Source: Haliotis asinina (lineage: Eukaryota). From it: a stretch of DNA of 64,000 nucleotides. Location of the stretch: the NCBI RefSeq assembly GCF_037392515.1, contig NC_090285.1, positions 70,653,515 through 70,717,514 on the forward strand, in the 5' to 3' direction. Positions 5,772-28,921 of the stretch are shown in pieces (within the stretch, counting starts at the first letter, position 1; the number at the start of each line of letters is the position of its first letter). Position numbers and translations under genes: made by a program. A model generated the notes under the pieces. The model did not search any database, was not told the DNA's origin, and saw nothing but the letters and a program-made list of their open reading frames with translations.

Positions 5772-5845
<74 letters not shown>
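5739..5845. repeat. (TGTA)n followed by a long (TG)n microsatellite
   Basis: Directly visible. Confidence 0.9.
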
Positions 5846-5846
<1 letters not shown>

Positions 5847-12684: not shown

Positions 12685-12988
12685 AGTAGTATAGGGAATG
12701 ATAGTTCTGGCTCACTTTCAAGAAATGTCTCTACAAAGCCTTATTTACTAAATAAGGCTTTGGTTGGGTCATTAGCTCTTGCTACTATTACCCCTACTAC
12801 AAAAAAGTTGGCGGTAATTACTGTGCCTTGGTAGGAGGTAACACTGTGCCGTACGGTACGATCAATAATTCTTCTCTTACAAATCCCCTACCCGGCCCAT
12901 CCCTCAAGTAGTATAAGTTAGGTTCGTCGGCTTTCATATCCACTTTATCTATGTTGTAAGTTTTGACTGACCATATAGGATCGGTGGC
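12685..12988. repeat. Left terminal inverted repeat of the Polinton-like element
   Basis: 100% identical to the reverse complement of 26673..26976. Confidence 0.9.
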
Positions 12989-13783: not shown

Positions 13784-16700
13784 ACGCGTATGTGTTTATA
13801 CCATCAATAGCTATCCAACGTTTCGTGTCCATAGGCGATAGGGACGTCTTGTTTATAGTCAGTCCGTATATCTTATGCCCATCACTTCTAAGTGTGTTCA
13901 TTTTATGTCTAAAGGTACGGGTCTTGAACAGGGCTTCCTTGAATCTGGCGTGTTTGATGTGTTGTTTCACCACATACTTAACCCCCTTAGCCTTCCGGAT
14001 CTCACTATTGTCGGCTTTCAGTATGGAGTACATCTTAGGTCTCAAACCTATGTACTCGGCTATGGGCGTGCCAGCACACTCGTCCTTCATCTTACCTAGG
14101 ACCTTTTTATTTACCGTACTGTGTAGGGCATGGGTCTTAGGGTAGTCGCTGGTGTCGTATAAATCGAGGTGTTTTTTCATGTCCTCGTACACGTCCTCGG
14201 TTCGAATCTCCATCAGCAGGGAATCCGTGTCAGTGTACAGCACTTCACACCTGTCACCGTACTGTTTCTTGAGCTCGTTGTAGTAAAAGTCGTACATCAG
14301 GTGTTTGGATAAATCGAGGATGCTCATCCCCACGTAAACAGGCCGGTTGAATTTTATGTGGCTTTTCTTCATGTGTAGGGCAACCAGGTTGTCTGTGAAT
14401 ATCTTACTACGGTTGAATGCCGGACTGGCTATCAATTTCCTGAGCTTGTCTTCCTCACTAGATCTAACCAGCTTCACGGTCACGCGTTTCCTCAGGTTCT
14501 CCATAGTCTTACCAAACACCGAGTTGTTCATGAGCTTGTAGAGATTTTTCTCAAAATCACTGGTGGCTTTTTTTCGTAGGTCTGTGTTCATTCTGATGTA
14601 GGGCTCCATCCATGGGCTCTGGTCGAACATGAGCACCCTGTGTATTTTGGTCAGCCTCATACCCAACGACAGGTACAGCTGTAGGTTGCGATAGTGAACG
14701 ATATACTTGGTCTTATTCATTAAGTTAGGCACGAGTTTTTCAACGTCTGTCACACGCCCACCTAACAAGTTATGTTGGTACTCAGACATCCAGTCTGTAT
14801 TAACCCTCATACGTTCGGGTGCAAGGGGATAGCTGTTGTGCGATGTGTGTAATTCCTTGGGATACTCTAAGTCAACTTCGAGGATATACCCTTTGTTCGA
14901 ATCTGGTGCAACCTCCATAACATCAACGTGGGGTACCCATTCGAATCCCCCTGTAGGTAGATACTGGCTCATGGCCCAGCCGTACAGGTTGTTTGCGTCG
15001 AGGTAGAGAATGTGATTGGTTGGTTTGTTAGGATCGTAACCTTTCACGTATTGATTATTTGCTTTAGCGTATCGTTTGGATGCCATGGAAATCCCACCTC
15101 GCAAGCCTTTCTCAATGAATAGGTGCATGTCGTAATCTGTGAGCAATTCCAAATTAACTCCGGTCTTTTTAAGCAAGGCGTCCCACGACAGACCTGGGCT
15201 GGTGTAATACCATGCGGGGTCGAGTTTATACTGCTTTAAACATGTCTGCCGAAACGTTTCAAACACGTCGGCTAACAGCAGTACATCTGTCCTCAAGTAC
15301 AGGTCGTGATAATCACCCAGGTTCTTACAACCCAGTTTATTCCATACGTTAGTCGCGTGCGAGTAATCATCTCGTGAGACGGACGCCTCATTCAGCTTGC
15401 TATAAAAGCAGTCAATAGGGGGTAGTCTGGTCTCGGTGAACTTGGCCCAACTATCCATGTACTCATAGGGGTACACACCCTTCCTCATAAGCAGGGGTCT
15501 AGTCTCGGCGTCTGTGTATCGATCGGTGATAGGGAAGGTATTGTTGGCCTTGACCAGACTGTCGAGTGACGACAGGAGGAACTGAAACGAGTCAATGAAC
15601 CTAAGTCCGTTTAAGCTGAAGGAGATGTATCTCTCCATGTTGTTGGGGATGCACGTTATATTACCATCGATTTTCGCGATGGCCTGCATGATCAAGTGTG
15701 AGTCGTACCCTCTCAAGTTGTGAAAGACAACGGGGATGTTTATTGTCTTAGGGTTGATTTTAAGCTTGAGGTTGCACGCGTTGTGAGCGGCGCCTCTATA
15801 CTTACCAGTTATGTGGCAGTGATCTCTCACCGAATCACCGTTAAGTGGTGAGTCGCACACGTGACAGTTAGTGCTACTAGCGTGAGCTAGCCTGTCGGCT
15901 CGGGTCATACGCATGGGAGCGATTCTATACAATGCATTCCTAATAATTTTTTCTTCCTCCTGCAAACACTTTAGAAACCTTTCAGCCGCGTCAGGGCCCC
16001 TATACACTACCGGAGCTTTCGTTTCCCCGTCACAACGGACGACAATGTATCCAAACGAACAGGCTTTATGCTCTTGTGTCTTGTGGGTGAAGCTACCACT
16101 GGGAGCCTCGCCGGCGGCAGCACTGGGGTGTGTGGGGGATTCCCCCACAACTAAGGCTTCGAAGTCGGCGTATATAATATAAGGTACAGACATTTGGTTC
16201 TTGTGGTTACTGAATTTTAGGATATTTTCACCTTCCTTAGGCATGTCGACTCGTATGGCCGTCTGCCCCACACCTTGGCAATCATCCCGGTGGGATTCTA
16301 ATAAATCAGCTCGACTGAAACCGTGTAGGCATCGTACACAAAAGTGTTTTTCCCCAACGTGTTTCGACTGGTCGTGCAACAACCGGCTGAGATGTTTTAT
16401 CCACGTGTAGTGATACTTTTCACCTCGCTGGATCATGAATATATTGATAACTTGGCGATCCTTCACCGGGCTGACCCTGTGTACTATTGTTGTGTTACCT
16501 TCGTGCCCAAAGACATTTATAGCCAGATTATTCTGTTTTTCTACTTTAGTGATCTGGGATATTGGGGTGGGTTCATCTATACCATCCCAATTAAGCCCAT
16601 CGTCTTGGGGATAGCTAGAAAGCCTATCTGAATTCTTGCCAGCTGGAAATAAGGCTGACCTGATAGCTAACCTCAGGCAATCGTTTCCTCTATTCTTAAC

Positions 16701-17504
16701 GTTTACTATGGCATGTTTGTTCCTATAGTAGGGAGGCAAGGCTAGGTATGACCCGCCTCTGAACGGCACGTAGTTAGCTATGTCTAGATAGACATTATCG
16801 ATTTTATCTACAGCCCACCCGGACCCCAAGTGTGTGTAGCGTTCTAGGTATTCTCGTATCTGCTGAAAACTGGTATCGATTGATGCGTCAATGGTCTCTG
16901 CATGTGTGACGACCTCTTGTTTACCTCGGAAGTAAGGCTGAACATACTCAGTGGTACTCCCAACCTGCTTATCGAGCGACATTTTCACTGTGATCTGAAA
17001 CTTGATACTTCCTAGGTTATTTAGTTCCTGGTTGATCTTATCAGCTATCAGAGGCTTGATATCTGTAATGTCTATGTTTCTATCAACGCGCATGCGCCAA
17101 CCTCTCAAATAATTGCCTACGGCGTGCTCAGTGCGCACGAACTGTAGGTCAATAGCTCTATTCTGTCGTAATAATTCTATAAGCTGTGGTTTTCTCATAC
17201 GGGAATACCCGCCTAAACCCAAATCGTGTGCCTCGACTTTCAGTTGTTTTACAGTGGGAGGTTTTGCTACGGGGGCATGTGATAACAATGCGGTTAACCC
17301 GGCTCTCCCCAGGTTTGAATAACCCGTGTATCCAAGCTGTTTTGCTTGAGCTTTTAATTGTTTTATTGTAGGAGGGGCTTCTAAACCTAGTAATCTCAAC
17401 AATGCTGACTTCCGCATTCTAGAATACCCGATGACACCTCTCTGTTTTGCGACCCGCTTGAGCTCGCTTACAGTAGACATCGTGTTTACACCTAAGAGAA
17501 CCAA
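13764..17504 (-). CDS. Protein-primed family-B DNA polymerase (pPolB), 1246 aa. It carries three N-terminal HeH/Rho_N-like repeats and a Cys/His Zn-finger-like segment before the exonuclease domain.
   Basis: Exo I YIIYADFEALV. PolB motif A LYLDANNLYGWAMSQ (= Dx2SLYPS class). Motif C VLYTDTDSL (= YxDTDS). N-terminus ELKRVAKQRGVIGYSRMRKSALLRLL / QLKAQAKQLGYTGYSNLGRAGLTALL / QLKVEAHDLGLGGYSRMRKPQLIELL. The ORF overlaps the integrase ORF by 20 nt. Confidence 0.92.
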   Translation of the reverse strand: MVLLGVNTMSTVSELKRVAKQRGVIGYSRMRKSALLRLLGLEAPPTIKQLKAQAKQLGYTGYSNLGRAGLTALLSHAPVAKPPTVKQLKVEAHDLGLGGYSRMRKPQLIELLRQNRAIDLQFVRTEHAVGNYLRGWRMRVDRNIDITDIKPLIADKINQELNNLGSIKFQITVKMSLDKQVGSTTEYVQPYFRGKQEVVTHAETIDASIDTSFQQIREYLERYTHLGSGWAVDKIDNVYLDIANYVPFRGGSYLALPPYYRNKHAIVNVKNRGNDCLRLAIRSALFPAGKNSDRLSSYPQDDGLNWDGIDEPTPISQITKVEKQNNLAINVFGHEGNTTIVHRVSPVKDRQVINIFMIQRGEKYHYTWIKHLSRLLHDQSKHVGEKHFCVRCLHGFSRADLLESHRDDCQGVGQTAIRVDMPKEGENILKFSNHKNQMSVPYIIYADFEALVVGESPTHPSAAAGEAPSGSFTHKTQEHKACSFGYIVVRCDGETKAPVVYRGPDAAERFLKCLQEEEKIIRNALYRIAPMRMTRADRLAHASSTNCHVCDSPLNGDSVRDHCHITGKYRGAAHNACNLKLKINPKTINIPVVFHNLRGYDSHLIMQAIAKIDGNITCIPNNMERYISFSLNGLRFIDSFQFLLSSLDSLVKANNTFPITDRYTDAETRPLLMRKGVYPYEYMDSWAKFTETRLPPIDCFYSKLNEASVSRDDYSHATNVWNKLGCKNLGDYHDLYLRTDVLLLADVFETFRQTCLKQYKLDPAWYYTSPGLSWDALLKKTGVNLELLTDYDMHLFIEKGLRGGISMASKRYAKANNQYVKGYDPNKPTNHILYLDANNLYGWAMSQYLPTGGFEWVPHVDVMEVAPDSNKGYILEVDLEYPKELHTSHNSYPLAPERMRVNTDWMSEYQHNLLGGRVTDVEKLVPNLMNKTKYIVHYRNLQLYLSLGMRLTKIHRVLMFDQSPWMEPYIRMNTDLRKKATSDFEKNLYKLMNNSVFGKTMENLRKRVTVKLVRSSEEDKLRKLIASPAFNRSKIFTDNLVALHMKKSHIKFNRPVYVGMSILDLSKHLMYDFYYNELKKQYGDRCEVLYTDTDSLLMEIRTEDVYEDMKKHLDLYDTSDYPKTHALHSTVNKKVLGKMKDECAGTPIAEYIGLRPKMYSILKADNSEIRKAKGVKYVVKQHIKHARFKEALFKTRTFRHKMNTLRSDGHKIYGLTINKTSLSPMDTKRWIAIDGINTYAYGHEKI

Positions 17505-17538
17505 TGTCTAATTGGTTCACAGTAAGGGGAGGTAACCC

Positions 17539-17799
17539 TTAAGTGGCTATCTTGAGCAGTCGCCTACGTTCTTTTATGTAGCCTTTTTTATTCTCGTAGA
17601 TGAGTTGATGTCTGACTACGTTCGCTCCGTGAGCTTTACATAGACAGTAGTGTCCTTTAACCCCGATACCACACACAGAACACGTGTAGTTAGGACTTCC
17701 CATATGGAAACAACAGAACCCCTGATTCCTGCATTTCCTACCACAGGCCTCGGTCTTCCCCATAAGTATGTATTCGCATCGGTATGGAGCGGGTCTCAT
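17539..17799 (-). CDS. Small Cys-rich (probable zinc-binding) protein, 86 aa
   Basis: ORF has many paired Cys/His: CGRKC...CCFH...CSVC...HYCLCKAH. Same strand as the neighbouring genes. Confidence 0.4.
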   Translation of the reverse strand: MRPAPYRCEYILMGKTEACGRKCRNQGFCCFHMGSPNYTCSVCGIGVKGHYCLCKAHGANVVRHQLIYENKKGYIKERRRLLKIAT

Positions 17800-17818
17800 G
17801 TTTACTTATATAGGTATT

Positions 17819-18244
17819 TTAATTTAATTGCTTCGCAACCAACGCAGTAGCTGCTATACCCAACACTATGAAGCCCAGTTCACGATTCATTTGTCCCTTG
17901 GATGGTGTGTAGTACTGAGCGAGTGTGGGTTTATTGAGCGGTTCCAATTGTTTACCAGTTAGTAGATAGTATTCTTTCATTGCTTCATCGACATCGTTGA
18001 ATGTTTGAACGGCATGGTTTTCACGCTGGAGTTGTTCGTTAATAAAATCGATCCTCTGGAGGCGTTTTTTAGCGTACTCGGCCTGTGCTCTTTGTAATTT
18101 CTCAGTAGCGAGATCGTGTCGCTTCCTTTCTTCCTGTATTTCAGCCGCGTGATCATCTCGTAGTTTCGAGAAGAGGAAATTACTCCCGGAAAATGCCAGG
18201 GCATTCACTAACGCCCCACCGACCATCATAGCTATCGTGGCCAT
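17819..18244 (-). CDS. Hypothetical membrane protein, 141 aa. N-terminal TM (MATIAMMVGGALVNALAFSG), central coiled coil, C-terminal TM.
   Basis: ORF in the same transcriptional orientation as the rest of the left-arm gene block. The hydrophobic segments are readable in the translation. Confidence 0.4.
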   Translation of the reverse strand: MATIAMMVGGALVNALAFSGSNFLFSKLRDDHAAEIQEERKRHDLATEKLQRAQAEYAKKRLQRIDFINEQLQRENHAVQTFNDVDEAMKEYYLLTGKQLEPLNKPTLAQYYTPSKGQMNRELGFIVLGIAATALVAKQLN

Positions 18245-18252
18245 CCCTATAT

Positions 18253-18480
18253 TTATTTCATTATATTATCAGGTATTATTCCTTGTTTTACTAGGATGTC
18301 TTTTGTGGCCATCGCCATACCAAGGTTCATTATGAGCATACCCATATCCTGCAGGTTGAAATCTAGCTTGATAGTTGGTTGTTTAAGCACCATTTTAGTC
18401 AACCGAGCGTACCCTACTGCTAGACTGGCTACCACTGTGGCGTGGTATACGTCGTTGACGAACGTTTTCCCCTCAGACAT
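18253..18480 (-). CDS. Hypothetical small protein, 75 aa
   Basis: ORF in the gene block, with an AT-rich region upstream of its start (18481..18510). Confidence 0.3.
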   Translation of the reverse strand: MSEGKTFVNDVYHATVVASLAVGYARLTKMVLKQPTIKLDFNLQDMGMLIMNLGMAMATKDILVKQGIIPDNIMK

Positions 18481-18506
18481 TATGTATATGATATAAAATA
18501 TTAAAA

Positions 18507-18818
18507 TTATAACATGATATGCGGGTCGACAGTGGGGCCTGCCGGCGGCGTGTGGGGTACCCCCACACCCCCAGGGTTTCCCTCAGTTCCCTCACGTGTA
18601 TATAACCATGTTATAACCACGGCAGCAGTTACACCTACAGCCAACAACAGTCGGGTTGGGTTGGCCGCTTTATGTTGGTTACACCACCGTTTTTTACCGG
18701 CAGCTACTCTCTTAGGATTCTTCTGCCTGGTTACTGTTGGGGGTACCCCCACTGGTGTCACTGGTTCCTGTGAAGGGGTCTCCTCCACTGTTTCCACTGG
18801 TTCCTGTGCAGCATCCAT
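18507..18818 (-). CDS. Hypothetical Pro-rich membrane protein, 103 aa. It overlaps the 3' end of the next ORF in another frame.
   Basis: ORF with a TM segment (LLLAVGVTAAVVITWLY) and a Pro/Gly/Thr linker (GVGVPHTPPAGPTV). Confidence 0.3.
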   Translation of the reverse strand: MDAAQEPVETVEETPSQEPVTPVGVPPTVTRQKNPKRVAAGKKRWCNQHKAANPTRLLLAVGVTAAVVITWLYTREGTEGNPGGVGVPHTPPAGPTVDPHIML

Positions 18819-19401
18819 CTATACTATTATTATTATTCTTTCTCTCAAATTGGCAATGTTTTGCTGTGATAATCGCCGCCGTCACTGGAGCCAACAACAT
18901 ACCATATTTGTGGTACAGCCCGCAGCTGATAGAGCTCACGGCGTGTTCGATAAAAGGGTCTTTCTCGAGGTCCTCCCACAGGTAAAGTCGGCGCTCTGGT
19001 GGAATGGGAAGGAAGTGTGATACAATACCGGTGTATATCTGGGTCATAGCCGATCCTATTGTCTTTGTCATTTCTGCTCCGAGCCGGGACTCGTATCTAG
19101 CGTATAGCTTATCGATTTCTTCGGCTGACATTTTGTGAATTTTATCCGGAGTGTAGTCTCCAAAATAATGTTTGGCTTTGCCGCCAACAGCCAACGCCAC
19201 CAGTTTCTCTCGCTTGGGGGAATCCCCCACAGTGGGGCCTGCCGGCGGCGTTGGGGAGACCCCCAACTGTTCGAGTAATTCCTCACACTCCATCTTATAA
19301 TATAACAAGTAAGATTTAGTTTTAACTATATAATACCCGATGCAGACAAAACACAGAGAAATGAAGGTTAAGTTGCACACGACAAATACTTCAAATATCA
19401 T
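18712..19401 (-). CDS. Hypothetical protein, 229 aa (an internal start at MECEELLEQ is possible). Contains the TPPAGPTV linker and a G/S/T-rich C-terminus.
   Basis: ORF in the gene block. No motif I recognise. Confidence 0.35.
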   Translation of the reverse strand: MIFEVFVVCNLTFISLCFVCIGYYIVKTKSYLLYYKMECEELLEQLGVSPTPPAGPTVGDSPKREKLVALAVGGKAKHYFGDYTPDKIHKMSAEEIDKLYARYESRLGAEMTKTIGSAMTQIYTGIVSHFLPIPPERRLYLWEDLEKDPFIEHAVSSISCGLYHKYGMLLAPVTAAIITAKHCQFERKNNNNSIDGCCTGTSGNSGGDPFTGTSDTSGGTPNSNQAEES

Positions 19402-19455
19402 AGCTATGCTTAGCTTTGCTTAGCTATGCTTAGCTTTGCTTAGCTTTGCTTAGCA
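19401..19455. repeat. 10-bp tandem repeat (TTAGCTTTGC / TTAGCTATGC, ~5.5 copies) in the intergenic region between the ATPase gene's 3' end and the next gene's start
   Basis: Directly visible: tagctatgcttagctttgcttagctatgcttagctttgcttagctttgcttagcat. Confidence 0.85.
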
Positions 19456-20055
19456 TACTATATATGCTACTGGTTGGTCGGTCTTTAGAACGAGCTTAGC
19501 GTGTTTAGTTTCAGCGAGCTGTTTCTTCACCCGTTCCCGTTCTAATTTACTCATCACATTGTTCTCTCTCAAACACTCCTCGAACGAATCCCTGTCCTTG
19601 CAGTGAAATAAGGCCACCCATCGCGTCTGCTCCCTGAGGTCTTTCAACACCGAGTTGAACTTCTGCGTTAGCACCCAGACGCTGTGATTTGCATGCCGGC
19701 CGGAGAAGGCCAGGTACGATAGCATGTCTCTCTTTTTTGTTATCTCGCGATTAGCGCTGCAGTCGTCCAGTATGAACAGCGTCGGTTCCCCTTTAAATTT
19801 CTCGTGAAGAGCTTTCAACCAGTCCTGCAGGCGTGTTCCAGGGTCGATTTTGTGTACGTCCGGGTCCGTCATCACCCAAGGTCGCGCGTACGTTTTATTC
19901 ATGCTCAGAGTAGGGCACATGATAACGATGTTATCGAACACATCCTTGTAGTAACCCTCCAACATATCCAACACGAAAACGGTCTTCCCACAGCCAGTCT
20001 GCCCGCACACTATGGCGCAGTGTGGGTCAGTGGGTAACCCCAGGGGGTACCCCCA
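19450..20055 (-). CDS. A32/FtsK-HerA-like DNA-packaging ATPase. It has no in-frame ATG upstream of the Walker A motif. The frame is open back to a TGA at 20056-20058, which is also the stop codon of the upstream ORF.
   Basis: Walker A GQTGCGKT. Walker B LFILDDCS. GRHANHSVWVLTQ resembles the poxvirus A32 GRHLNTSIILLCQ block. My own translation of the upstream region: TGA WGYPLGLPTDPHCAIVCGQTGCGKT. Confidence 0.8.
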   Translation of the reverse strand, partial: WGYPLGLPTDPHCAIVCGQTGCGKTVFVLDMLEGYYKDVFDNIVIMCPTLSMNKTYARPWVMTDPDVHKIDPGTRLQDWLKALHEKFKGEPTLFILDDCSANREITKKRDMLSYLAFSGRHANHSVWVLTQKFNSVLKDLREQTRWVALFHCKDRDSFEECLRENNVMSKLERERVKKQLAETKHAKLVLKTDQPVAYIVC

Positions 20056-21312
20056 TCAGTAGATGGCTTGCACGAATCTCCCATTGTCTATATTAAGTTG
20101 CGCGTCCATAATAACGTACAGATATAATTTCAACTTACCAGCGGTTTGAGCCTTCTTAGTAATCTGGATGGTTATCCCTTCGCTGCCGTTATCTATACGG
20201 CGCCCGCTACCGTGCAGTTTATCATCATCCGTGGATCGCATGTCCAACCATAGGGCGTACTTGGTGGTCAGGTATTCACCGATCTGCACGGAGCCGAGAT
20301 CCAGGTCCTTTGTTATGTAGTCCCCCACTGGTAGCTTTTTTATCTCATCCCACTGCTGGTGTGGTCTCATACCATGACTGAACAGCTGGTTGGGCACGCC
20401 CTCGATGGTAACTTCCACCTTTTCAATCTCGGGGTTGAAAAACTTCTCGCTGTCCCTCCGGAATGGATCGTAATCCTCCACGGGGACGACCAGGATACCT
20501 TTCATCGATCGCGCCGGCACGTTCAGGTTGATATTCCACACAGTGTCGCTCTTATCTCGCACGACTGATCTATGCCTCAGTACGCGATCGTACAGGATAG
20601 CCATCTTCCCAGAGTACTGGTTTCGAACCTGCCTGGCCAGCTCCGGGCTAGTGACCATGTCGAACTCCAGAGAGATGTTGTCTATGGCATAACTGGCCTC
20701 ATCACCGTTTGGTGTACGCACTACTTTGCTATAGTCGTTAAACGTGAGCTCGTATTCGAGCCTATCACCCAGCGCGGCCTGGTAAAACGGCGCGTGTCCC
20801 GTGAGCAACTCGAAGTCGAGCGGCACGCAGAATCGATTTCCGTATGCTCGAGCGATGGCCTTTTCACCGTCCGATAGCTTGTCTTGCTGGTCTGTCGTGA
20901 AGACGTATCCTATGCGCGCCCGGGTTGATTTGCTGATGCCCTGGTACACATCATTGACTCGTTCTCTCTCGCTTTTCCAGAGATCCTTGTAGCAGTGAAA
21001 CACGTCGCTGTCGTCGATGCTCAGCACCTCGTTACCGCTGATCTTGACGGTCGTTTTCTTGATGATAGCTCGACCCACGTTCCGCACTAGCTCGCGTTTG
21101 TCGTTGTCGGAGATCAACGTGATATTGAACGCCAGTCGAACAGTGCCTGGTACAATGAGGTCATTCTCACCAAGGTTTGGAAATCTAACCAGCAGAGTTT
21201 GATTCTGGTCTATCTTGCTGGGATTGTTGGTGATGGTCACCGACTGTCGCACGGCTCTGGCCCCTAATGGCTCTCTCAATCTTCTGAAAGGATCTAATTT
21301 TCTGCCGTACAT
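20056..21312 (-). CDS. Candidate jelly-roll capsid protein (putative major capsid protein), ~419 aa from MYGRKLDP
   Basis: Size and position (adjacent to the packaging ATPase) fit Polinton major capsid proteins. The N-terminal region is beta-strand-like (TLLVRFPNLGENDLIVPGTVRLAFNITLIS). I see no sequence motif that confirms it. Confidence 0.35.
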   Translation of the reverse strand: MYGRKLDPFRRLREPLGARAVRQSVTITNNPSKIDQNQTLLVRFPNLGENDLIVPGTVRLAFNITLISDNDKRELVRNVGRAIIKKTTVKISGNEVLSIDDSDVFHCYKDLWKSERERVNDVYQGISKSTRARIGYVFTTDQQDKLSDGEKAIARAYGNRFCVPLDFELLTGHAPFYQAALGDRLEYELTFNDYSKVVRTPNGDEASYAIDNISLEFDMVTSPELARQVRNQYSGKMAILYDRVLRHRSVVRDKSDTVWNINLNVPARSMKGILVVPVEDYDPFRRDSEKFFNPEIEKVEVTIEGVPNQLFSHGMRPHQQWDEIKKLPVGDYITKDLDLGSVQIGEYLTTKYALWLDMRSTDDDKLHGSGRRIDNGSEGITIQITKKAQTAGKLKLYLYVIMDAQLNIDNGRFVQAIY

Positions 21313-21344
21313 TGTTATATAAAAGAAATATATTTTTAATACTA
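21313..21344. promoter_or_regulatory. 32-bp AT-rich divergent intergenic region with a TATA-like element (ttatataaaag) between the capsid candidate (-) and the 396-aa gene (+)
   Basis: Start codons at 21310-12 (complement) and 21345. The sequence between them is tgttatataaaagaaatatatttttaatacta. Confidence 0.4.
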
Positions 21345-22502
21345 ATGGATGAAGACATAGATATGACGGAGATGCCGGGCGATAGTGCCCAGGCATTCGA
21401 TGAGCAGGAGACCTCATTTACTAGTTCACCATTGAACCAAGAACTCTTGGAAACAACGGTAAATGATTATTACGAAAGTTTAAGAAGAGATAAAAACTAC
21501 GTTGAACCACAGGGTCGATACCATAAGAATTTTTTTATTGATACAAAGGGTGTTCTACGCCTTAAGTCTGACCCAGGGGTTGACCTCTTTAACAAGAGCA
21601 ATAAAAAACCACTGGCCTTGTCAACTCTAGCCAGCCGCCATGGTGTCGAATTTATCCGTAAAAATCTAAACATGAATGATTACGGTGGTGCAATACCTAA
21701 GGCCGTTAAAGAAGATCTGCAAGCTACCAGATCCCACCTCACCACTAGAGATGAAATGACACCACAGCGTGCTACAGAAGCCTCGGACAGCATAGAAAAA
21801 CTGTTGAGCACCTACTGGGACAAACCGTTACCGGGGTTTGACTTTCCGGTAAGGGAACTGCGCGGCTTAGACGAAGCCGTGAAACGCGTGCGTGGAGAAC
21901 TCGTGAACAACATGGGGAAACTGAACGAAATCGACGAGCACATCGCTAGGGAAAAAACCAAACTCAACGAAACTGAAAACGATGATATGAAGCGTCGTAT
22001 CAATGAACGAATACGTGATTTAGAAGACGAGAGACGTACACGATTGGAAGCCGCTTCCTCGAATCGTGAACAGCTTCGATCCCAGATCAGTCGTATTCGG
22101 GAAACAATCGATAGAATACTGAATGAGGATACAACTTTAGCCAACAGGATTCGGATATTGTTCCGGGAGCAAGGGATCACCATCGCCAGTATTCTGACTG
22201 CATTGGGTTTCATCATATCAACCCTGGTGGTGTCACTGGTGGGAGGAACCCCCACACCTGCCGGCGGGGGAACTCCCACAGGCGGCGGGGTTAAAGACTG
22301 GATAAAAAAACTCGGGGAAGGCCTAGCTAAACTGGCTGGTAAAGCCGCCGAAGCCCTTCCCGGCATCCTGGGTAGCATCGTCTCGTGGTTGTTGGGCGCT
22401 CTGTCTAAAACTGCCATGTGGCTCAGTCAAAACCTGTGGGCAGCCATAGTCGCCGTGGTGGGTCTGGTGTACGTAGCGGCTAAGAAATCTTTAACCAAAT
22501 AA
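21345..22502 (+). CDS. Hypothetical 385-aa protein. Acidic N-terminus, long coiled coil, then a multi-pass hydrophobic C-terminus interrupted by a GGTPTPAGGGTPTGGG linker.
   Basis: Long ORF that starts at the first ATG after the AT-rich region. Heptad-like charged region (KLNEIDEHIAREKTKLNETENDDMKRRINERIRDLEDERRTRLEAASSNREQLRSQISRIRETIDRIL). Hydrophobic stretches (IASILTALGFIISTLVVSLVGG ... ILGSIVSWLLGAL ... LWAAIVAVVGLVYVAA). Confidence 0.45.
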   Translation: MDEDIDMTEMPGDSAQAFDEQETSFTSSPLNQELLETTVNDYYESLRRDKNYVEPQGRYHKNFFIDTKGVLRLKSDPGVDLFNKSNKKPLALSTLASRHGVEFIRKNLNMNDYGGAIPKAVKEDLQATRSHLTTRDEMTPQRATEASDSIEKLLSTYWDKPLPGFDFPVRELRGLDEAVKRVRGELVNNMGKLNEIDEHIAREKTKLNETENDDMKRRINERIRDLEDERRTRLEAASSNREQLRSQISRIRETIDRILNEDTTLANRIRILFREQGITIASILTALGFIISTLVVSLVGGTPTPAGGGTPTGGGVKDWIKKLGEGLAKLAGKAAEALPGILGSIVSWLLGALSKTAMWLSQNLWAAIVAVVGLVYVAAKKSLTK

Positions 22503-23691
22503 GTCCCAAAGTTACCCCACCAACCACCAGGGCTGTTTTATTATCGATGTGATTGGAGGCCTGAATATGGGGGTGTGTGGGGGGCACATGAACTTTAGGC
22601 TCCGGAGGTGGCGCCACTATACCCTTTTCACGTGGTGGGATGTGTGGGATATAGGGGGTGTTAATATCGGGGTTGATACCCAACTTTTGGTCCGCCGTGG
22701 CTATGACTATTTTGTTGTTATAACCCACCACTTTTTTTATTCTCAGTTGCATATCACTCGGAGCCATGTACAACCCCACGCCGAATACGTAATTGACTTT
22801 CGATCTGGCGTATTCTAACACGTTTTGGTAGCGTTCGATGGCCCGCGGGAGATCAACTGGAGAATTAATAGCATCCTCAACGTTGGCAACGAACTGTTTC
22901 TGAGCGTCGTAAGCAGTTCCCTTACCGATGATGTTGGAACGCGTTTGCGACTGCGCACCCAACAGCGCCCACACGTACGTTCGAATCGAGTCGTTCAAGC
23001 GTATTGTACCAGCACGAGTGAATCCTTTCGACGTGTCCAGCATGAACATTTTCCACCCGTCTGCGGTTGACTGCTCCACTTTCTGGACTGTGAAAGCAAC
23101 ACCACCTTTAAAGTTCATACGATCATCCCTCCATTCATTACTCGACAAAGCAAAGTCCTGGCGTAGTATATCTCGTTTCAGTAAATCATCACTGACTTCT
23201 TTCACTGATCGCGCGCCATCATAAGGAATACCCAACCCGTGGTTCGGCCCCGGCAAACGCCAATCCGTCTTCGGGTTTATTTCGAATTCATTGCAAATAC
23301 GTTCGTAGGCCCGTCTATCGTACGGGTTGTTTGTTGCGCCCCACGCTTTGTCCTGTGGGAGGGGGGCGCTGATCTCTTTAAGGATACGTCTGACCTGGTA
23401 GTACACGTGGAACTTGAACACAGACTGACTCAGCGGTCCACGCCGAGTGTCGGCCAATGTCACACCACACCCCGTTGTAGCGCACCACATGGCAAAGTTG
23501 AATTGATTCTGCCAGAACTGCATAGGGTTGTTGAACCAAGCGTGGACTGCCTTGATGTTAGTCACCGAAAGCTTATACTTATCGAACACATCCAAAAGCT
23601 GGGCATTGAAATACAACTCAGGAGCAACCACGATCTTCATGGGGGAGAAATCTACGTCCAGTTTAGGGTAAAACACACCAGGGGAATACAT
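22480..23691 (-). CDS. Hypothetical ~403-aa protein with a Pro-rich linker and a C-terminal TM anchor (TALVVGGVTLGLIWL). Alternative capsid candidate.
   Basis: Uninterrupted 1.25-kb ORF, whereas the opposite strand is fragmented. Convergent with the 385-aa gene (23-nt overlap). Confidence 0.4.
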   Translation of the reverse strand: MYSPGVFYPKLDVDFSPMKIVVAPELYFNAQLLDVFDKYKLSVTNIKAVHAWFNNPMQFWQNQFNFAMWCATTGCGVTLADTRRGPLSQSVFKFHVYYQVRRILKEISAPLPQDKAWGATNNPYDRRAYERICNEFEINPKTDWRLPGPNHGLGIPYDGARSVKEVSDDLLKRDILRQDFALSSNEWRDDRMNFKGGVAFTVQKVEQSTADGWKMFMLDTSKGFTRAGTIRLNDSIRTYVWALLGAQSQTRSNIIGKGTAYDAQKQFVANVEDAINSPVDLPRAIERYQNVLEYARSKVNYVFGVGLYMAPSDMQLRIKKVVGYNNKIVIATADQKLGINPDINTPYIPHIPPREKGIVAPPPEPKVHVPPTHPHIQASNHIDNKTALVVGGVTLGLIWLKIS

Positions 23692-23725
23692 TTTAAAACT
23701 ATTATATAATAAATATATATGTAAT
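23692..23725. promoter_or_regulatory. AT-rich divergent intergenic region with TATA-like elements between the 403-aa gene (-) and the 217-aa gene (+)
   Basis: ttttaaaactattatataataaatatatatgtaat lies between the two start codons. Confidence 0.4.
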
Positions 23726-24379
23726 ATGTACATAACACTTCCAGGAATAACGAGCGGTGAGGCCGTTCAGCTGACGCACGCGATCGATAACACGTCAGGT
23801 CAACTCGAAGTCGCACTCTGCGATATCACCTACCTACCGCAATGGACTAACATCAATATCAGCAACAATAAGCTGTTCGTCAGTGGAACTCGCAGCCAGA
23901 TAACTGACGGCTACTACAGTGTGTGCTCTCTAAACGACGAGGTCTTCAAACCCCTGGGAGCCGAACTCAAGATGAACGACTCAAACGGTACAGTGGTGTT
24001 AATCAACAACGGAAGAACCTCATTGAGGCTCGGCCGACCATTAGCGAGGATACTCGGTATGTCTCCTGACGAGATAAAACCAACAACAACCATCACAGGC
24101 ACGAAGTTACCCGACCTAGTACCGTACCGAGAGCTGTACATTCATCTCGGTCAGGTGAGCACAACGTATAACATTCAAGGAGGTCACCCTTCCACTATAC
24201 TGAGAGCAGTGCCGGTGAAAACTGAGAAATTCAACGACGGTAGAACCGAGTCGTTTTCACCACGGCAGTATAAGAGATTAACCCAGGGCAACATACCTGA
24301 GTTGACAATATCGGTGTTAGATATAAATCATAATCCTGTAAATATAGGATACCTCAGCTTAACGCTTCATGTAAAATGA
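23726..24379 (+). CDS. Hypothetical beta-rich 217-aa protein (possible minor capsid/penton-like protein)
   Basis: ORF with alternating hydrophobic beta-strand-like patterning. First of four tandem + strand ORFs with short (-4 to +10 nt) junctions. Confidence 0.35.
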   Translation: MYITLPGITSGEAVQLTHAIDNTSGQLEVALCDITYLPQWTNINISNNKLFVSGTRSQITDGYYSVCSLNDEVFKPLGAELKMNDSNGTVVLINNGRTSLRLGRPLARILGMSPDEIKPTTTITGTKLPDLVPYRELYIHLGQVSTTYNIQGGHPSTILRAVPVKTEKFNDGRTESFSPRQYKRLTQGNIPELTISVLDINHNPVNIGYLSLTLHVK

Positions 24380-25287
24380 CCAGCGCACAAGGGCCCGGAG
24401 TGAAAAAATGCGTCAATATCGGGATCTCCGACCTTGGAGACACGCGCGGTTTCGACGCTCCCGGAGTAGATGGTAAATCGTACGCCTTGCAACTGAAAAA
24501 CAACATTTACAAACGCGTTGAAATCCCCTCCGGTGGAACCCTAAGTGATATAGTAGATACCACAAGAGCAACAGTCAACACTAAGTACACCCTTGTCAAC
24601 ACCGGTGATAATAATTGGGTAATATACCCATCGTTCGGAGGTAAACTGTTCGACTTAGACGATGTTGAGAGCACTACCGTCGCCCGAAACAAGCCATATA
24701 TGCTCGTCTTCACCGAAGATGACAAGTGGGTGTTGTTACCCGATAACAACTGGTTTATCAATATTAGACTCGTCTCCCCCTACGTGTTCACTGATAACAA
24801 AGACAACCACCTAAACAAAGTCGTGAACAATGGAACCCTGCTCGTGGCTTACGTCCCAACTCAGAGACGTAGCATAGTCGTCAGCCCAGTCAACACTATA
24901 GCAGCCCACATGCTATCGAGTAAACCAGCCATACAAAACGTGAAATTGCAGTTGGTGTCTGAATTCGAAGGTGTGGTCACTATACTAGAGGATCTACCGG
25001 CAAACTCAACACTGATCATCAAAGTCTACCTAGGGGAACCATCGGGGAATGATGTCGAGATCGTGAAGGGGATCAAACTCGGGTGGGTGAAACGACACCA
25101 GTATCAAGTTTGCAACGTTTACGTGCGGGTGGGTGTCGACTCCAAGACCAGTCTGCAGGGGGTCAACGTGATCGTGGAAAACAAGATATCACTAATCAAT
25201 ATCTTCCTGCCTGACAACATACACTTCATGGGTATGAAGTTAACCCCTGAATTATTATCAGAAAACCAGTTGGAAATTATATCGTAA
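24376..25287 (+). CDS. Hypothetical 303-aa protein. Paralog of the next ORF; they share an N-terminal DLGDTxGFDxPG motif.
   Basis: MTS...DLGDTRGFDAPGVDGKSYALQLKNNIYKRVEI versus MTS...DLGDTEGFDQPGEEDELYILHFKDNVYRRVSL. C-terminal ...NQLEIIS versus ...RQLEIFS. Confidence 0.4.
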   Translation: MTSAQGPGVKKCVNIGISDLGDTRGFDAPGVDGKSYALQLKNNIYKRVEIPSGGTLSDIVDTTRATVNTKYTLVNTGDNNWVIYPSFGGKLFDLDDVESTTVARNKPYMLVFTEDDKWVLLPDNNWFINIRLVSPYVFTDNKDNHLNKVVNNGTLLVAYVPTQRRSIVVSPVNTIAAHMLSSKPAIQNVKLQLVSEFEGVVTILEDLPANSTLIIKVYLGEPSGNDVEIVKGIKLGWVKRHQYQVCNVYVRVGVDSKTSLQGVNVIVENKISLINIFLPDNIHFMGMKLTPELLSENQLEIIS

Positions 25288-25297
25288 TAGTATAATA

Positions 25298-26002
25298 ATG
25301 ACCAGTCATCATCCCAACACTACGCTTAACGACCTAGGAGATACGGAGGGATTCGATCAGCCTGGTGAGGAAGATGAATTATACATCCTGCACTTCAAAG
25401 ACAACGTGTACAGACGGGTGTCGTTATCAGATTTAAAAGAACCCAAATGGCTGATCAACTTAACAATCGCCTCACCTTATATCACAACAAAAGAGGGGTG
25501 GAAGTTTATCTCTAAGATTAGGAATAACGGTATCTGGCCCGGGGATTTCATTACGGGGAATGAAGCAACAGCCTCGGTATATTTTTATGAAGGAAAAATT
25601 GGATTAATTTCTGGAATAGAAAGTAAATTAACATTTAGCAGTATGTATTTACACGAAAGGCAGCTTGAGATATTCTCCCCCTACACAATCATCATAGAAG
25701 TCATCTTTACGTATTTTGACCAGGAAAACTCCTCGAAAGGACGTCAATTTTTACCCGGGGTGGTATTACACTGGTTTACCGAACACTTAGATCAATATTG
25801 CCGTATTGTTATACAACGGGATACCCCCACGGGTTCTATAAAACGTTTAATAAGCCTCCCTGGGGTTTTTATTACAACAGAAAAGTCTATTAGCCTCTCA
25901 CCAATTATCATTAGTTATGATCTATTCCTTATAGGCTTCAAATACATTGATAGACTATTAACTGAAACCCAATTAAAATATTTTTCAAAATATATATTAT
26001 AG
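25298..26002 (+). CDS. Hypothetical 234-aa protein, paralog of the 24376..25287 ORF
   Basis: See the paralog comparison above. Confidence 0.4.
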   Translation: MTSHHPNTTLNDLGDTEGFDQPGEEDELYILHFKDNVYRRVSLSDLKEPKWLINLTIASPYITTKEGWKFISKIRNNGIWPGDFITGNEATASVYFYEGKIGLISGIESKLTFSSMYLHERQLEIFSPYTIIIEVIFTYFDQENSSKGRQFLPGVVLHWFTEHLDQYCRIVIQRDTPTGSIKRLISLPGVFITTEKSISLSPIIISYDLFLIGFKYIDRLLTETQLKYFSKYIL

Positions 26003-26003
26003 G

Positions 26004-26621
26004 ATGGGTCTGTACCCAGTCGTAGAGGAAGTAGCGAAGACGCTGGAAACCGTAGATGGGTTCCGCTTGAGGCAGTTATGTGATGTGAAACGTCAACTAG
26101 AACAAGACCGTGACACGCGGAAAGCACTATGTAAAAAGTACAATAGAGCTTTCAATATCGTGGACGGGGTTGACACTACCCTTATGGCAACCAGCATGGG
26201 ACTAGGGGCGGCAGGTGTTGGATTGTTAGCTACCATCGTGGCTGCACCTATAGTGCTAGGTATTGAAATAACGGCTGGGGTGACAGGGTTGGTAGGGTTG
26301 GCGCTTAAGTTAGTATCACGCAGACTTAATCGTAAGGCATTGAAACACGACGAGATCAGGGTTCTGGCCGAAGCAAAGCTGAACACAGTGAGTGAGCGAA
26401 TTTCCACGGCACTCTCTGACAGTAAGATCTCAGAAGAGGAGTTTCGTTCAATCCTATCTGAACTCAAAAAATATAACGGAATGAAACAAGATATTCGGTC
26501 CAAGTCTCGTAAGTCTGCTATCAGCGAGGACGAGAAAAAAAAGTACATAGAACAGGGGATACAAAAAGCCCAGCAAGCCTTTATTATGAACACCAAAGAG
26601 ATCGTAGGCGGTTCACGTTAA
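26004..26621 (+). CDS. Hypothetical 205-aa membrane protein with a coiled coil. Ends ...EIVGGSR.
   Basis: ORF. Hydrophobic core (LMATSMGLGAAGVGLLATIVAAPIVLGIEITAGVTGLVGLAL) followed by a charged helical region. Confidence 0.4.
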   Translation: MGLYPVVEEVAKTLETVDGFRLRQLCDVKRQLEQDRDTRKALCKKYNRAFNIVDGVDTTLMATSMGLGAAGVGLLATIVAAPIVLGIEITAGVTGLVGLALKLVSRRLNRKALKHDEIRVLAEAKLNTVSERISTALSDSKISEEEFRSILSELKKYNGMKQDIRSKSRKSAISEDEKKKYIEQGIQKAQQAFIMNTKEIVGGSR

Positions 26622-26672
26622 ACTGTTTCATCGATATAAACATGACACAGGCACAGACGTTAAGTAGTAGGG

Positions 26673-26976
26673 GCCACCGATCCTATATGGTCAGTCAAAA
26701 CTTACAACATAGATAAAGTGGATATGAAAGCCGACGAACCTAACTTATACTACTTGAGGGATGGGCCGGGTAGGGGATTTGTAAGAGAAGAATTATTGAT
26801 CGTACCGTACGGCACAGTGTTACCTCCTACCAAGGCACAGTAATTACCGCCAACTTTTTTGTAGTAGGGGTAATAGTAGCAAGAGCTAATGACCCAACCA
26901 AAGCCTTATTTAGTAAATAAGGCTTTGTAGAGACATTTCTTGAAAGTGAGCCAGAACTATCATTCCCTATACTACT
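26673..26976. repeat. Right TIR of the Polinton-like element. It carries an orphan copy (no start codon) of the last 57 integrase codons plus the stop.
   Basis: Reverse-complement identity with 12685..12988. My + strand translation of 26673.. gives ATDPIWSVKTYNIDKVDMKADEPNLYYLRDGPGRGFVREELLIVPYGTVLPPTKAQ*. Confidence 0.9.
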
Positions 26977-27062
26977 GTGTTCCACAAGGACTACTGTAGC
27001 TCACCTTCATAATTATGTGTATAGGTACAGTTATAACATGGGAGACTTTTGATGGTGTTTTT
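26977..27062. repeat. Host ~77-bp satellite monomer immediately right of the element. It completes the monomer interrupted at 12684.
   Basis: gtgttccacaaggactactgtagctcaccttcataattatgtgtataggtacagttataacatgggagacttttgatggtg matches the satellite consensus. Confidence 0.8.
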
Positions 27063-28306
27063 GTTACATAAGGCAGGGGTGGAAAAGTCCCATTGCCCGA
27101 TGTACCAGTCTAGTCCTTTTTTCTGTTGGGCAAGCTAATTTGTTTATCACACTGTACCGGTGTTCAGTTGACTTTCCATTGTTAATTATGTTGTTTATTT
27201 TAATGATCAACAAGACAATTGGCTGGTATAATGGAAAAATTATCAGGGCAAGTGATTTTACAAGTGCCAGTGTACCGGGGTGCATTAGCAAATTCAAGAA
27301 TTATTTCCATCCCAGTACGGGCTTCGGTAACTCACCTTCACAACTGTGTGTATATATGAGGACTGTCCCCAAAGTGTTTGACCTCACCTGGACAGTTATG
27401 AAAATGGGACTGTTTTTATGTTTTATTTTTCTACATATCATCTGTGAAGCTCAAGCAAATTGTTTTTACCATGTCCCAGCCTCATGTTCCCCGTTTTGTT
27501 TCACTTTTTATCTTGGTACCCCCAGAAAACGCAAAATTAGCAATAAATTTATTATGAACTTCAGGAAACCAAACATGAAAGAAACATTTTGTGTGTTAGA
27601 GATAAGCAGAGGTCCCCTATAATTAAACGTAGCTATTAAAGTGCATAAAAATGCAATATGAAACTACAGTCACTTGTTAAAGTGACTCCGCACCGTGATG
27701 TTTACAGACAGAGCTTTTGGAAACACTACACACCCCCACTTTCAGATGACGTTAACAAAGGGGCATAACTAATTCTAATGTTTTCACTTATTCATGCATG
27801 ATGCCAAGGGTTCAAACAAAATACTGAATGGTCACACAGGAGTCAGCTCCTAATATGTTGTAAACACTGCCGACTTGAATTATCTGAACAAAATAATTTT
27901 GAAAGATTAAAATGGGTGTGTCCTTTAAAAACAACATCATCTAACTATAAATCAAGCGATCGAAAATTTTGAATGGTGATTATGACGTGAAGTCATCCAT
28001 ACCATACTGAACATATTTTATGTCATATTCTTTCTGAGCTCATGCCATCATTCAACTTGAATTTCAAGAGGTACCAAATGACTGATTGTTTTTCACATTC
28101 TGCAATGTTTAAAGAAATATTACACCCCAATGTGTTGAGATGACAAATATCTTGTGAACCACATAAACCACATTTATGAAATTCTGCATATACCTTTGCT
28201 AATGATTCTTTCAAAACTAAATAGAGCTTTTCTAGCATTGGACTTCGAGAATATAGTGAGGATGACCACTTTTTGGATACCCCTCTTAGGTAAGGTTGGA
28301 AAAGAC

Positions 28307-28921
28307 AGTTTGATGGTATCTGTGTTACACAAGGGCTACAGTAGCTCACCTTCACAACTGTGTGTATAAGTATAGTTATAACTTGGGAGAGTTTTGATGG
28401 TATCTGTGTTACACAAAGGCTGCAGTAGCTCACCTTCATAACTCTGTATACGTACAGTTATAACATGGGAGAGTTTGATCGTATCTGTGTTACACAAGGG
28501 CTGCAGTAGCTCACCTTCACAACTGTGTGTAAAGGTATAGTTATAGCATGGGAGAGTTTGATGGTATCTGTGTTACACAAGGGCTACAGTAGCTCACCTT
28601 CACAACTGTGTGTATACGTACAGTTATAACATGGGAGAGTTTGATGGTATCTGTGTTACACAAAGGCTGCAGTAGCTCACCTTCACAACTGTGTGTATAG
28701 GTACAGTTATAACAGGGGAGAGTTTTGATGGTATCTATGTTACACAAAGGCTGCAGTAGCTCACCTTCACAACTGTGTGTATACGTACAGTTATAACATG
28801 GGAGAGTTTGATCGTGTCTGTGTTACACAAGGGCTGCAGTAGCTCACCTTCACAACTGTGTGTATAGGTACAGTTATAACAGGGGAGAGTTTTGATCAGG
28901 ATACAGGAAAACTGTAGCTCT
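28307..28921. repeat. Tandem array (~8 monomers) of the same ~77-bp satellite
   Basis: Directly visible periodicity. The ORFs called here (28023..28439, 28541..28747) are repeat translations. Confidence 0.9.

Follow-up and report, generated by a model that had tools for sequence, protein, structure and literature searches.

What makes short GC-rich palindromes recur inside the coding sequence of several genes of a single element? The question is raised by a 64-kb window of the Haliotis asinina genome (the whole stretch of DNA that was analyzed, from contig NC_090285.1), in which an integrated Maverick/Polinton-like element of 14.3 kb (positions 12685-26976) contains every one of a set of palindromic units, hereafter called modules. 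The element carries its polymerase, integrase, ATPase, capsid and most other genes on the minus strand. We find that the recurrence reflects duplication and recombination at the DNA level, beyond convergent linker composition, and we propose with moderate confidence that the modules are a lineage-specific family of hypermutable GC-rich palindromic micro-repeats. A first-pass annotation of this DNA had called the element AT-rich and the open reading frames (ORFs) that harbor the modules late; the former is inaccurate, as the element has 46.8% GC compared to 39-41% in the host flanks, and no basis was found for the latter.

Inventory, enrichment and coding context of the modules

The perfect 12-mer palindrome GGGGGTACCCCC is present at 18739-18750 and 20043-20054, and a copy with one mismatch, TGGGGTACCCCC, lies at 18553-18564. 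These three matches compare with 0.04 expected based on dinucleotide shuffles. All three had been reported in the first-pass annotation (with starts at 18738 and 18546 for the copies now placed at 18739 and 18553), as had related modules at 19216, 19254 and 22238-22287, which we recover at 19216 (GGGGGAATCCCCC), at 19253 (GGGGAGACCCCC) and as a degenerate pair at 22241 and 22266. Using a strict definition (the regular expression G4+N0-4C4+) applied to the 64-kb window, six modules were identified, six of six inside the 14.3-kb element and none in the 49.7 kb of flank, whereas first-order shuffles predict 0.64 for the element (maximum 4) and 0.06 and 0.48 for the two flanks. With its flanks, the family consensus is roughly (CA)GT(G/T)GGGG(G)-N2-3-CCCCCAC(A/T)(G), which corresponds to a unit of ~18-27 nt with a core of G4-5, 2-3 bases and C4-5 and with (CA)GTG and CAC(TG) as the usual flanks. 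No constant flanking repeat was found around the modules, only microhomology of GGG or TGGGG (at site A, described below) and ACTG at 18735/18751.

Longer blocks are shared between sites in both orientations. The direct repeat that had been put at ~36 bp spans 37 nt (18529-18565 versus 19229-19265, 89% identity) and does encode the peptide TPPAGPTV in two proteins, o6 and o7. Absent from the earlier inventory was a copy in the polymerase gene, TGTGGGGGATTCCCCCA (16131-16147), which is the exact 17-nt reverse complement of 19215-19231. Likewise missing from it were a 19-nt inverted match between 18732-18750 and 20043-20061, which adds seven shared bases to the 12-mer (TACTG(T/A)T), and a related block, CCCCCACACCCCCA, at 18560. 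The inverted copy of this block with one mismatch, TGGGGGTGTGTGGG, lies on the minus strand in the C-terminal region of o11 (22568-22581, read as VPPTHPH).

Modules occupy at least seven sites in six genes, almost all of them in coding linkers and in blocks of up to 37 nt. Site A (20034-20061, minus strand) is the junction between the capsid stop and the ATPase start, where GGGGGTACCCCC at 20043-20054 begins one base past the capsid stop codon (20058-20056) and falls in the N-terminal linker of the ATPase. Site B (19213-19272, minus strand) is the N-terminal linker of o7 (18712-19401) and combines GGGGGAATCCCCC, the second copy of the 37-nt repeat and GGGGAGACCCCC, read together as QLGVSPTPPAGPTVGDSPK. 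Site C (18732-18831, minus strand) is the overlap between the C-terminal tail of o7 and the N-terminus of o6 (18507-18818), where GGGGGTACCCCC at 18739-18750 is read as SGGTPN in o7 and as PVGVPPT in o6; it includes a degenerate 36-nt tandem pair (18739-18774 and 18775-18810, 78% identity). The C-terminus of o6 carries a composite block (18529-18573, minus strand) made up of the first copy of the 37-nt repeat, GGGGTACCCCC and CCCCCACACCCCCA, and read as GGVGVPHTPPAGPTV; distant o6 homologues have an unrelated linker upstream of a conserved C-terminal (I/V)(N/D)P..ML motif. The polymerase module TGTGGGGGATTCCCCCACA (16131-16149, minus strand), read as VVGESPTH, lies in a variable loop with alignment gaps, flanked by the conserved segments YADFE and EHKAC, and folds into a hairpin of -8.7 kcal/mol. 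On the plus strand, the degenerate modules GGGAGGAACCCCCACACCTGCCGGCGGGGGAACTCCCACAGGCGGCGGGG of the o10 linker (22236-22290; o10, 21345-22502) are read as LVGGTPTPAGGGTPTGGG, and their best non-self matches within the element are other module sites.

We permuted synonymous codons inside each of the 15 ORFs of the element, keeping the proteins and the codon usage of each ORF, in 2000 trials. Shuffled elements contained on average 1.2 modules and at most five, compared to seven observed, and none of the 2000 trials reached the observed count. The 12-mer core is read in all three codon phases, as GGTP (o7 tail), GVP(P/H) (o6) and GYP (ATPase frame), other modules are read as GDSP, GESP and GVSP, and the 12-mer at 18739 is read in two frames simultaneously in the o7/o6 overlap. 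Because the polymerase gene and o7 are both on the minus strand, the members of the 17-nt inverted pair have opposite orientations relative to the coding strand. For the linker of o10, a plus-strand gene, the best alignments are to linkers in minus-strand genes, without inversion of the DNA. Codon shuffles, the use of three codon phases and both orientations, and the rearrangement of modules in a close copy (below) all agree in identifying a family at the DNA level.

Protein-level constraint acts on this family as a filter, with modules located in variable or disordered linkers and coding indels occurring in multiples of three except at the capsid/ATPase junction. In an AlphaFold model of o7 (51-sequence alignment), the core has a predicted local distance difference test score (pLDDT) of 84-93, and the module-encoded residues 46-59 and 183-229 have a pLDDT below 50. 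The leader that precedes the P-loop of the ATPase ranges from 8 to 47 residues among 112 homologues (mode 21-23).

Module turnover in close and distant copies

A search with o7 identified two close relatives, P0122 (from Haliotis asinina) and P0121, which is encoded on a 1581-nt JGI contig, L004. In ungapped alignment, L004 is 98.9% identical to the window over the 3' end of the capsid gene, 97.8% over the ATPase core and 96.3% over the o7 core, and its ATPase protein (P0175) is 98% identical. Sites A, B and C are only 61-72% identical and contain many indels. Site B has 61% identity with two 9-nt gaps, and site C has 67% identity with gaps of 3, 21 and 6 nt and ~3 repeat units in L004. The coding indels at these two sites (9, 9, 3, 21 and 6 nt) are multiples of three, so that the reading frames are kept, including in the o7/o6 overlap. 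L004 contains five strict modules in 1.58 kb (0.18 expected), and GGGGGTACCCCC is present twice. The 14-mer CCCCCACACCCCCA occurs three times in L004, in sense orientation at sites A and C and in antisense at site B, and belongs to an exact 22-nt inverted match; in the window it is found at a fourth site, the o6 C-terminus. The earlier claim of recurrence at the DNA level thus holds against another copy, as L004 uses the same nucleotide blocks and not unrelated codons, and carries modules.

The second relative, P0122, is a chimeric gene model in which, by eye, the first ~123 residues are identical to the window capsid and the rest matches the o7 core, with yet another arrangement of modules around the unchanged core. 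The NCBI model joins the C-terminal third of the capsid to o7 by a predicted intron that skips the ATPase; this fusion is an annotation artefact of a kind typical of endogenous Mavericks.

Two further differences from L004 were observed in the same region. The capsid stop codon is TGA in the window and TTA in L004, and its loss means that the array in L004 (L004 positions 95-160) is translated in two frames at once, as a 22-residue C-terminal extension of the capsid and as the N-terminus of the ATPase. In the long form of o7, a 21-nt TATA-rich insertion relative to L004 (ATCTTACTTGTTATATTATAA, 19297-19317, minus strand) places SYLLYYK after the predicted N-terminal membrane helix and before MECEELLEQL.

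Beyond these copies, the capsid belongs to a large, mollusc-associated family found in ENA, Logan and JGI contigs, in Elysia and in lucinid-symbiont metagenome bins, none of which exceeds 66% identity to the window capsid. Our distant comparison set comprised seven elements with 60-70% identity (L001-L003 and L006-L009). All seven are syntenic with the window element, L003 especially, and have modules at background frequency. Their linkers homologous to the module sites are unrelated in sequence, for example the acidic LNEQSNDEPSEEDDR in o7. As an exception, L001 (12312) and L002 (8327) carry GGGGGGTAGCCCCCC in the o5 homologue, with MGGSPP in place of the KGPAP of the others. The module family is therefore common to the close copies, where it is redistributed over sites and orientations, and is not enriched in the distant lineages. 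The GGGGGGTAGCCCCCC tract is G17 in L001 and G6 in L002; G17 truncates the ORF of L001, on a contig with 3x coverage, and may be a sequencing error or a contingency-like tract.

Searches for additional close copies returned little. No exact protein match was found for the window capsid, o5, o4 or P0122, a metagenome scan with o7 gave one distant locus, a conserved 29-nt DNA pattern had no match in viral contigs or prokaryotic genomes, and L004 was the sole match above 71% identity in a protein search with the ATPase.

Site A differs between copies in a way that affects a core gene. In relatives (L004 and L001/L003), the ATG of the ATPase overlaps the end of the capsid gene and is in frame through the P-loop. 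In the window, the frame opened by the homologous ATG (20085) stops after 24 codons at 20013-20011 (20011-20085, minus strand), and the P-loop frame lacks an ATG downstream of the capsid stop; the ATG at 20085 and the P-loop lie in different frames. The segment between the conserved ...GCCATCTACT and CCCACTGACCCACAC... has a length of 23 nt in the window, against 84 nt in L004, and this 61-nt length difference breaks the ATPase frame. Deleting 14 nt (GGGGGTACCCCCTG, with GGG microhomology) gives MGDSCKPSTDGLPTDPHCAIVCGQ and a 22-residue leader, a length that is shared with L001 and belongs to the family's modal class. Insertion of one G or C would likewise restore the frame, giving MGDSCKPSTDGGYPLGLPTDPH. 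The defect contrasts with an otherwise intact-looking copy, with perfect inverted repeats and 14 other ORFs open, and is either a real inactivating contraction of the module array or an assembly error in a G5/C5 homopolymer.

Three other routes to a functional ATPase were considered, and none was convincing. A 41-nt GT...AG mini-intron that links the ATG frame to the P-loop would remove the beta-strand HCAIV, which is conserved before the P-loop in all relatives. A -1 ribosomal frameshift or a hop of 13-14 nt at 20043 is unlikely, given that there is no slippery heptamer, that the take-off and landing codons are unfit and that L004 is in frame. Stop read-through fusing capsid and ATPase is also unlikely, as the ATPases of relatives use their own ATG overlapping the capsid end.

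Candidate explanations for the modules

Under the explanation we favor, the modules would occupy segments of an abalone-type Maverick that encode variable or disordered linkers. A core that equals its own reverse complement allows every copy to pair with every other in either orientation, and slippage, template switching during replication or non-allelic (ectopic) gene conversion could copy the core and a few flanking bases between sites. Such copying would flip blocks and expand or contract arrays, and selection on the proteins would merely filter the products, tolerating a disordered stretch rich in Gly, Pro, Thr and His of any length provided that the frame is kept; the modules themselves would have no dedicated function. 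A single contraction at the capsid/ATPase junction would then have put the ATPase of the window copy out of frame, the alternative being a mis-assembled G5 or C5 run. Palindrome-seeded copying accounts for the dispersed direct and inverted blocks, for the changes in array size and for the concentration of divergence at module sites.

Several observations weigh against this explanation. With one close DNA relative (L004, 1.58 kb) and one protein (P0122) available, the rates of events and their direction are read from two or three copies. We infer the copying mechanism and have not observed it, as neither a clean empty/filled site nor a consistent target duplication was seen. Modules lie at the same three sites in both close copies, which could reflect selection for their presence rather than tolerance. 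All modules fit a kappa-B-like consensus, and three are within 50 nt of a stop codon, so that a function is conceivable. Across the family, the o10 linker (GG(A/S)TP and then a Pro-rich stretch) keeps its position and length at the protein level, which makes this site at least partly a protein-level feature.

The closest analogue of the modules is the GC clusters of yeast mitochondria, with which they share behavior but not ancestry or defining anatomy. GC clusters are short GC-rich palindromes that occur as in-frame inserts in var1, are rapidly shuffled and merged and promote recombination, and relatives of them in Magnusiomyces capitatus ('byps') are bypassed by ribosomes (PMC8811140). Like GC clusters, the modules are dispersed, over-represented relative to lower-GC surroundings, partly located in coding sequence and translated in frame, and present as single units or arrays; the rapid substitution, merger and shuffling of clusters have a counterpart in the rearranged sites and in the blocks shared across sites and orientations between the window and L004, and both act as hot spots of recombination and deletion. 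Unlike GC clusters, the modules have units of ~12-27 nt with no sequence homology to clusters, reside in a nuclear-integrated, virus-like replicon of a mollusc rather than in an organelle, and lack the AG/TAG-type terminal repeats, target duplication and defined classes. GC clusters are also mostly intergenic, whereas the modules are almost all in coding linkers, and translational bypass is not supported for them.

Other repeat systems match less of the pattern. Rickettsia palindromic elements (RPEs) are inserts of ~100-150 bp in unrelated ORFs, in frame, that form defined families and encode one conserved peptide in one frame (PMC10969869). The modules likewise are palindromic repeats that lie in frame in unrelated ORFs and add peptide where the fold tolerates it, but they are ~10-fold shorter (12-27 nt, in blocks of at most 37 nt), use all frames and both strands, and are hypervariable between close copies. 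A second point of reference is provided by coding minisatellites (variable number tandem repeats, VNTRs) and contingency homopolymer tracts, which are known in viral and bacterial genes. As in these, hypervariability in length is restricted to coding segments that tolerate it, most indels are multiples of three and runs of G or C can toggle the frame (compare the window ATPase, and G17 in L001 with G6 in L002). Unlike in a simple head-to-tail VNTR, most units are dispersed and some inverted, with sequence exchanged between sites, even though site C has a degenerate tandem pair in the window and ~3 units in L004. The homologous regions (hrs) of baculoviruses are intergenic arrays of ~30-bp palindromes with demonstrated enhancer and origin activity. 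These hrs and kappa-B enhancers are comparable in that dispersed imperfect palindromes lie in a DNA virus genome and that module cores match GGGRNWYYCC; unlike hrs, the modules are intragenic and unconserved in position. No description of palindromic modules in Polintons/Mavericks was found in full-text literature searches, which is weak evidence of absence.

An active form of the GC-cluster analogy, in which preferred targets receive a defined palindromic unit through a nuclease or ribozyme-like activity, is possible but unlikely. Coding inserts of this self-propagating mini-element would be in frame or would be bypassed in translation like the Magnusiomyces mitochondrial 'byps'. Site A is indeed a net insertion relative to the modal ATPase N-terminus, where removal of the 14 nt GGGGGTACCCCCTG restores an L001-length leader; the 12-mers at 18739 and 20043 share seven extra flanking bases in inverted orientation; the polymerase has an Endonuclease_7 domain match (E = 1.8e-5); and yeast GC clusters are similar in their in-frame var1 inserts, merging, shuffling and recombination hot spots (PMC8811140). 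However, the unit is variable in length, neither a terminal repeat nor a target duplication recurs consistently, no filled site has a clean empty counterpart, and the endonuclease-like domain is also found in L003, which is free of modules. Bypass is needless in L004, where the ATPase is in frame, and a defect or an assembly error is the simpler account of the window frameshift.

That the modules are cis-regulatory, with dyad protein-binding sites placed inside coding sequence, we regard as distinctly unlikely. Putative binding factors would be dimeric host proteins of the Rel/NF-kappaB-like or KLF/Sp-like kind, or the 86-residue Cys-rich protein of the element itself, and would tie its expression to the state of the host. 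As double-stranded DNA the modules are near-perfect dyads, CACACCC boxes are recurrent, and several modules are kept at the same three sites in both close copies despite turnover. The kappa-B consensus GGGRNWYYCC has eight sites in the element compared to one in the 50 kb of flank, and all module cores match it. Within the modules at 16134 and 19216, GGGGATTCCCC is the classical major histocompatibility complex (MHC) class I kappa-B site. A match to this consensus nevertheless follows automatically from any architecture of G-run, A/T and C-run, and so it is a lead with little weight and not independent evidence. The position, spacing and number of modules are not conserved between 97%-identical copies, and relatives at 60-70% identity show no enrichment.

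A more speculative combination, to which we give similarly little credence, would make the modules undescribed self-spreading palindromic mini-inserts of a eukaryotic virus-like transposon that colonize coding linkers in either orientation, a nuclear/viral counterpart of mitochondrial GC clusters. They might spread through cleavage of extruded cruciforms by the Endonuclease VII-like domain of the polymerase, and might have a double role as kappa-B-like dyads or as contingency tracts that turn the packaging ATPase on and off by toggling the reading frame.

Hairpins in DNA or RNA, serving as transcript 3' ends (as in the 'hairpin rule' of mimivirus), as a packaging signal or as a recoding stimulator at the capsid/ATPase junction, are improbable. 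Folded as single-stranded DNA, those modules that combine a 3-nt centre with GTGT/ACAC flanks yield 8-bp stems of -8.7 to -9.0 kcal/mol (z ~-2), three modules lie less than 50 nt from the capsid, o7 and o6 stop codons, and a change of frame in the ATPase is needed exactly at a module. The two exact 12-mers, which have 2-nt centres, are poor folders (-3.0 and -3.8 kcal/mol, z = +0.4 and +0.7), contrary to the hairpins suggested in the first-pass annotation, and the proximity to stop codons has no significance when six modules are spread over densely arranged, overlapping genes. Nothing points to a fixed, structured element: hairpins span -3 to -9.5 kcal/mol (z from +0.7 to -3.1), and no Rfam family is matched in the element at E up to 1. 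Structure positions are not conserved in L004, whose ATPase has no need for recoding, and the junction lacks a canonical slippery heptamer. Of the earlier interpretation, DNA-level duplication and recombination therefore stand, and the functional half (protein-binding sites, packaging sites or RNA hairpins) is not supported, because position and sequence are unconserved in near-identical copies, enrichment is absent at 60-70% identity, the 12-mers make poor hairpins and Rfam has no family.

Selection at the protein level alone, whereby Gly/Pro/Thr linkers and a preference for GGG and CCC codons (both common in the element) give palindromes by chance, is very improbable and largely refuted: Gly-x-Pro can yield such strings, as in GGGGGTCCCC for the conserved capsid EGVP of L001 and L002 (GGC GTG CCC in the window), and the o10 linker GG(A/S)TP is conserved in the family, but this account is rejected by the codon shuffles, by the use of three frames and both strands, by exact inverted matches of 17-22 nt and by distant relatives that have similar codon usage and GC content with modules at background.

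Two other sources were tried and set aside. Adenovirus-type protease cleavage sites of the form (M/I/L)XGG-X in the linkers have LVGG-T in o10 as their sole fit, and the searches yielded no protease gene. Nor are the modules explained by telomere-like TTGGGG, by KpnI sites or by a vector polylinker, as the units are single and an independent metagenome contig has the same family.

Comparisons of Maverick/Polinton elements usually proceed gene by gene, and little has been described of how the elements mutate on a fine scale. In this lineage, linkers in at least six genes are being remodeled by a palindromic micro-repeat family, at a pace well above that of point substitution and with the capacity to break a core gene. 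The genes concerned encode the polymerase, the ATPase, a membrane protein with a coiled coil and three small proteins of membrane or virion type. If this is general, modules would be sensitive markers that distinguish copies and recent activity, would let virion-associated proteins vary rapidly, would inactivate endogenous copies and would constitute an independent nuclear case of the palindrome-seeded spread known from mitochondrial GC clusters. G5/C5 palindromes also mislead long-read assemblies and gene callers, as in the chimeric capsid-o7 model of Haliotis asinina. The family is thus useful for typing at the level of copies and calls for caution in annotation, while a function has not been demonstrated.

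The host element, its genes and its flanks

The element is bounded by terminal inverted repeats of 304 nt each (12685-12988 and 26673-26976) that are 100% complementary, with termini AG...CT (AGTAGT...ACTACT). Polintons/Mavericks typically duplicate 6 bp of target; here GTGTT is duplicated at the flanks, a clear 5-bp duplication, and a 6-bp one is inexact. The insertion target is a host satellite with a period of ~83 bp (12520-12684 and 26977-28950; repeat families D8, D12 and D15). The 15 ORFs comprise the integrase, the polymerase, five small ORFs, the ATPase, the capsid and six more. With a polymerase, an rve integrase, terminal repeats, a double-jelly-roll capsid and an A32 ATPase, the element is a Maverick/Polinton.

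The integrase gene (12818-13783, minus strand) matches the rve family (Pfam PF00665, E = 2e-10). Next to it lies the gene for a protein-primed polymerase of 1246 residues (13764-17504, minus strand), which is collinear with relatives that match PF03175 DNA_pol_B_2 (L006 and L009) and retains the conserved YADFE exonuclease motif; the Pfam matches of the window polymerase itself are limited to Rho_N and Endonuclease_7. The former are repeated Rho_N/SAP-like motifs at the N-terminus (PF07498, E = 2.5e-13), and the latter places residues 534-580 in the Recombination endonuclease VII family (His-Me finger, PF02945), with the motif DHCHITGKYRGAAHNACN. The location of a predicted junction- or cruciform-cutting nuclease domain in the polymerase, beside repeats that are palindromic, is suggestive, but the presence of the domain is uncorrelated with that of modules, and the motif DHCHITGKYRGAAHNACN also occurs in L003, where there are none. 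In L002 (10644-13805) and L008 (11129-13768), a superfamily-1 helicase-like gene (AAA_19/AAA_30) replaces the protein-primed polymerase, which indicates that the replication module has been exchanged within the capsid family.

The packaging ATPase gene (19450-20085, minus strand), frame-shifted at site A, is A32-like (Pfam Pox_A32, PF04665, E = 3e-8). The major capsid protein gene (20056-21312, minus strand) encodes 418 residues and is assigned to the double-jelly-roll class based on homologues and predicted fold. Its ORF has 1754 homologues, one of which, from the sea slug Elysia, is labelled 'Major capsid protein'. The AlphaFold model of the capsid is of low confidence (pLDDT 56.7, predicted template modelling score 0.57), and its best Foldseek matches are the capsid proteins of SGIV, PBCV-1 (Vp54) and mavirus (E ~1e-11). 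Searches of PHROGs and PDB sequences yielded nothing useful for the capsid and the unassigned ORFs. An adenain-like cysteine protease and a penton (minor capsid) protein had no Pfam or PHROGs match among the 15 ORFs, with no structure-based search made on the unassigned ones.

Several genes that lack a Pfam or PHROGs annotation are syntenic throughout the mollusc Maverick family. These include the small predicted membrane proteins o4, o5, o6 and o7, the Cys-rich o3 (86 residues) and o10, which has a coiled coil and two membrane helices; coordinates in this set include 17539-17799, 17819-18244, 18253-18480, 21345-22502 and 26004-26621. The products of o3, o4, o5, o6, o7 and o10 may belong to an internal membrane or to the virion. 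A 10-nt tandem repeat (GCTTAGCTTT/GCTAAGCAAA) with ~5 copies (19401-19454) lies in the interval from the stop of the ATPase to the start of o7, and has fewer copies in L004 (alignment gaps of 4 and 9 nt).

The host flanks contain repeats of other kinds. Short interspersed element (SINE)-like repeats derived from tRNA occur in direct and inverted orientation at 8617-8745, 56517-56684 and 62899-63059 (for example GGGTAGCCTAGTGGTTAAAGCGTC), and minisatellites are found at 5724-5867, 11388-11809, 35421-35644, 40745-41428, 44117-44685, 47641-49225, 57629-58882 and 59907-60219.

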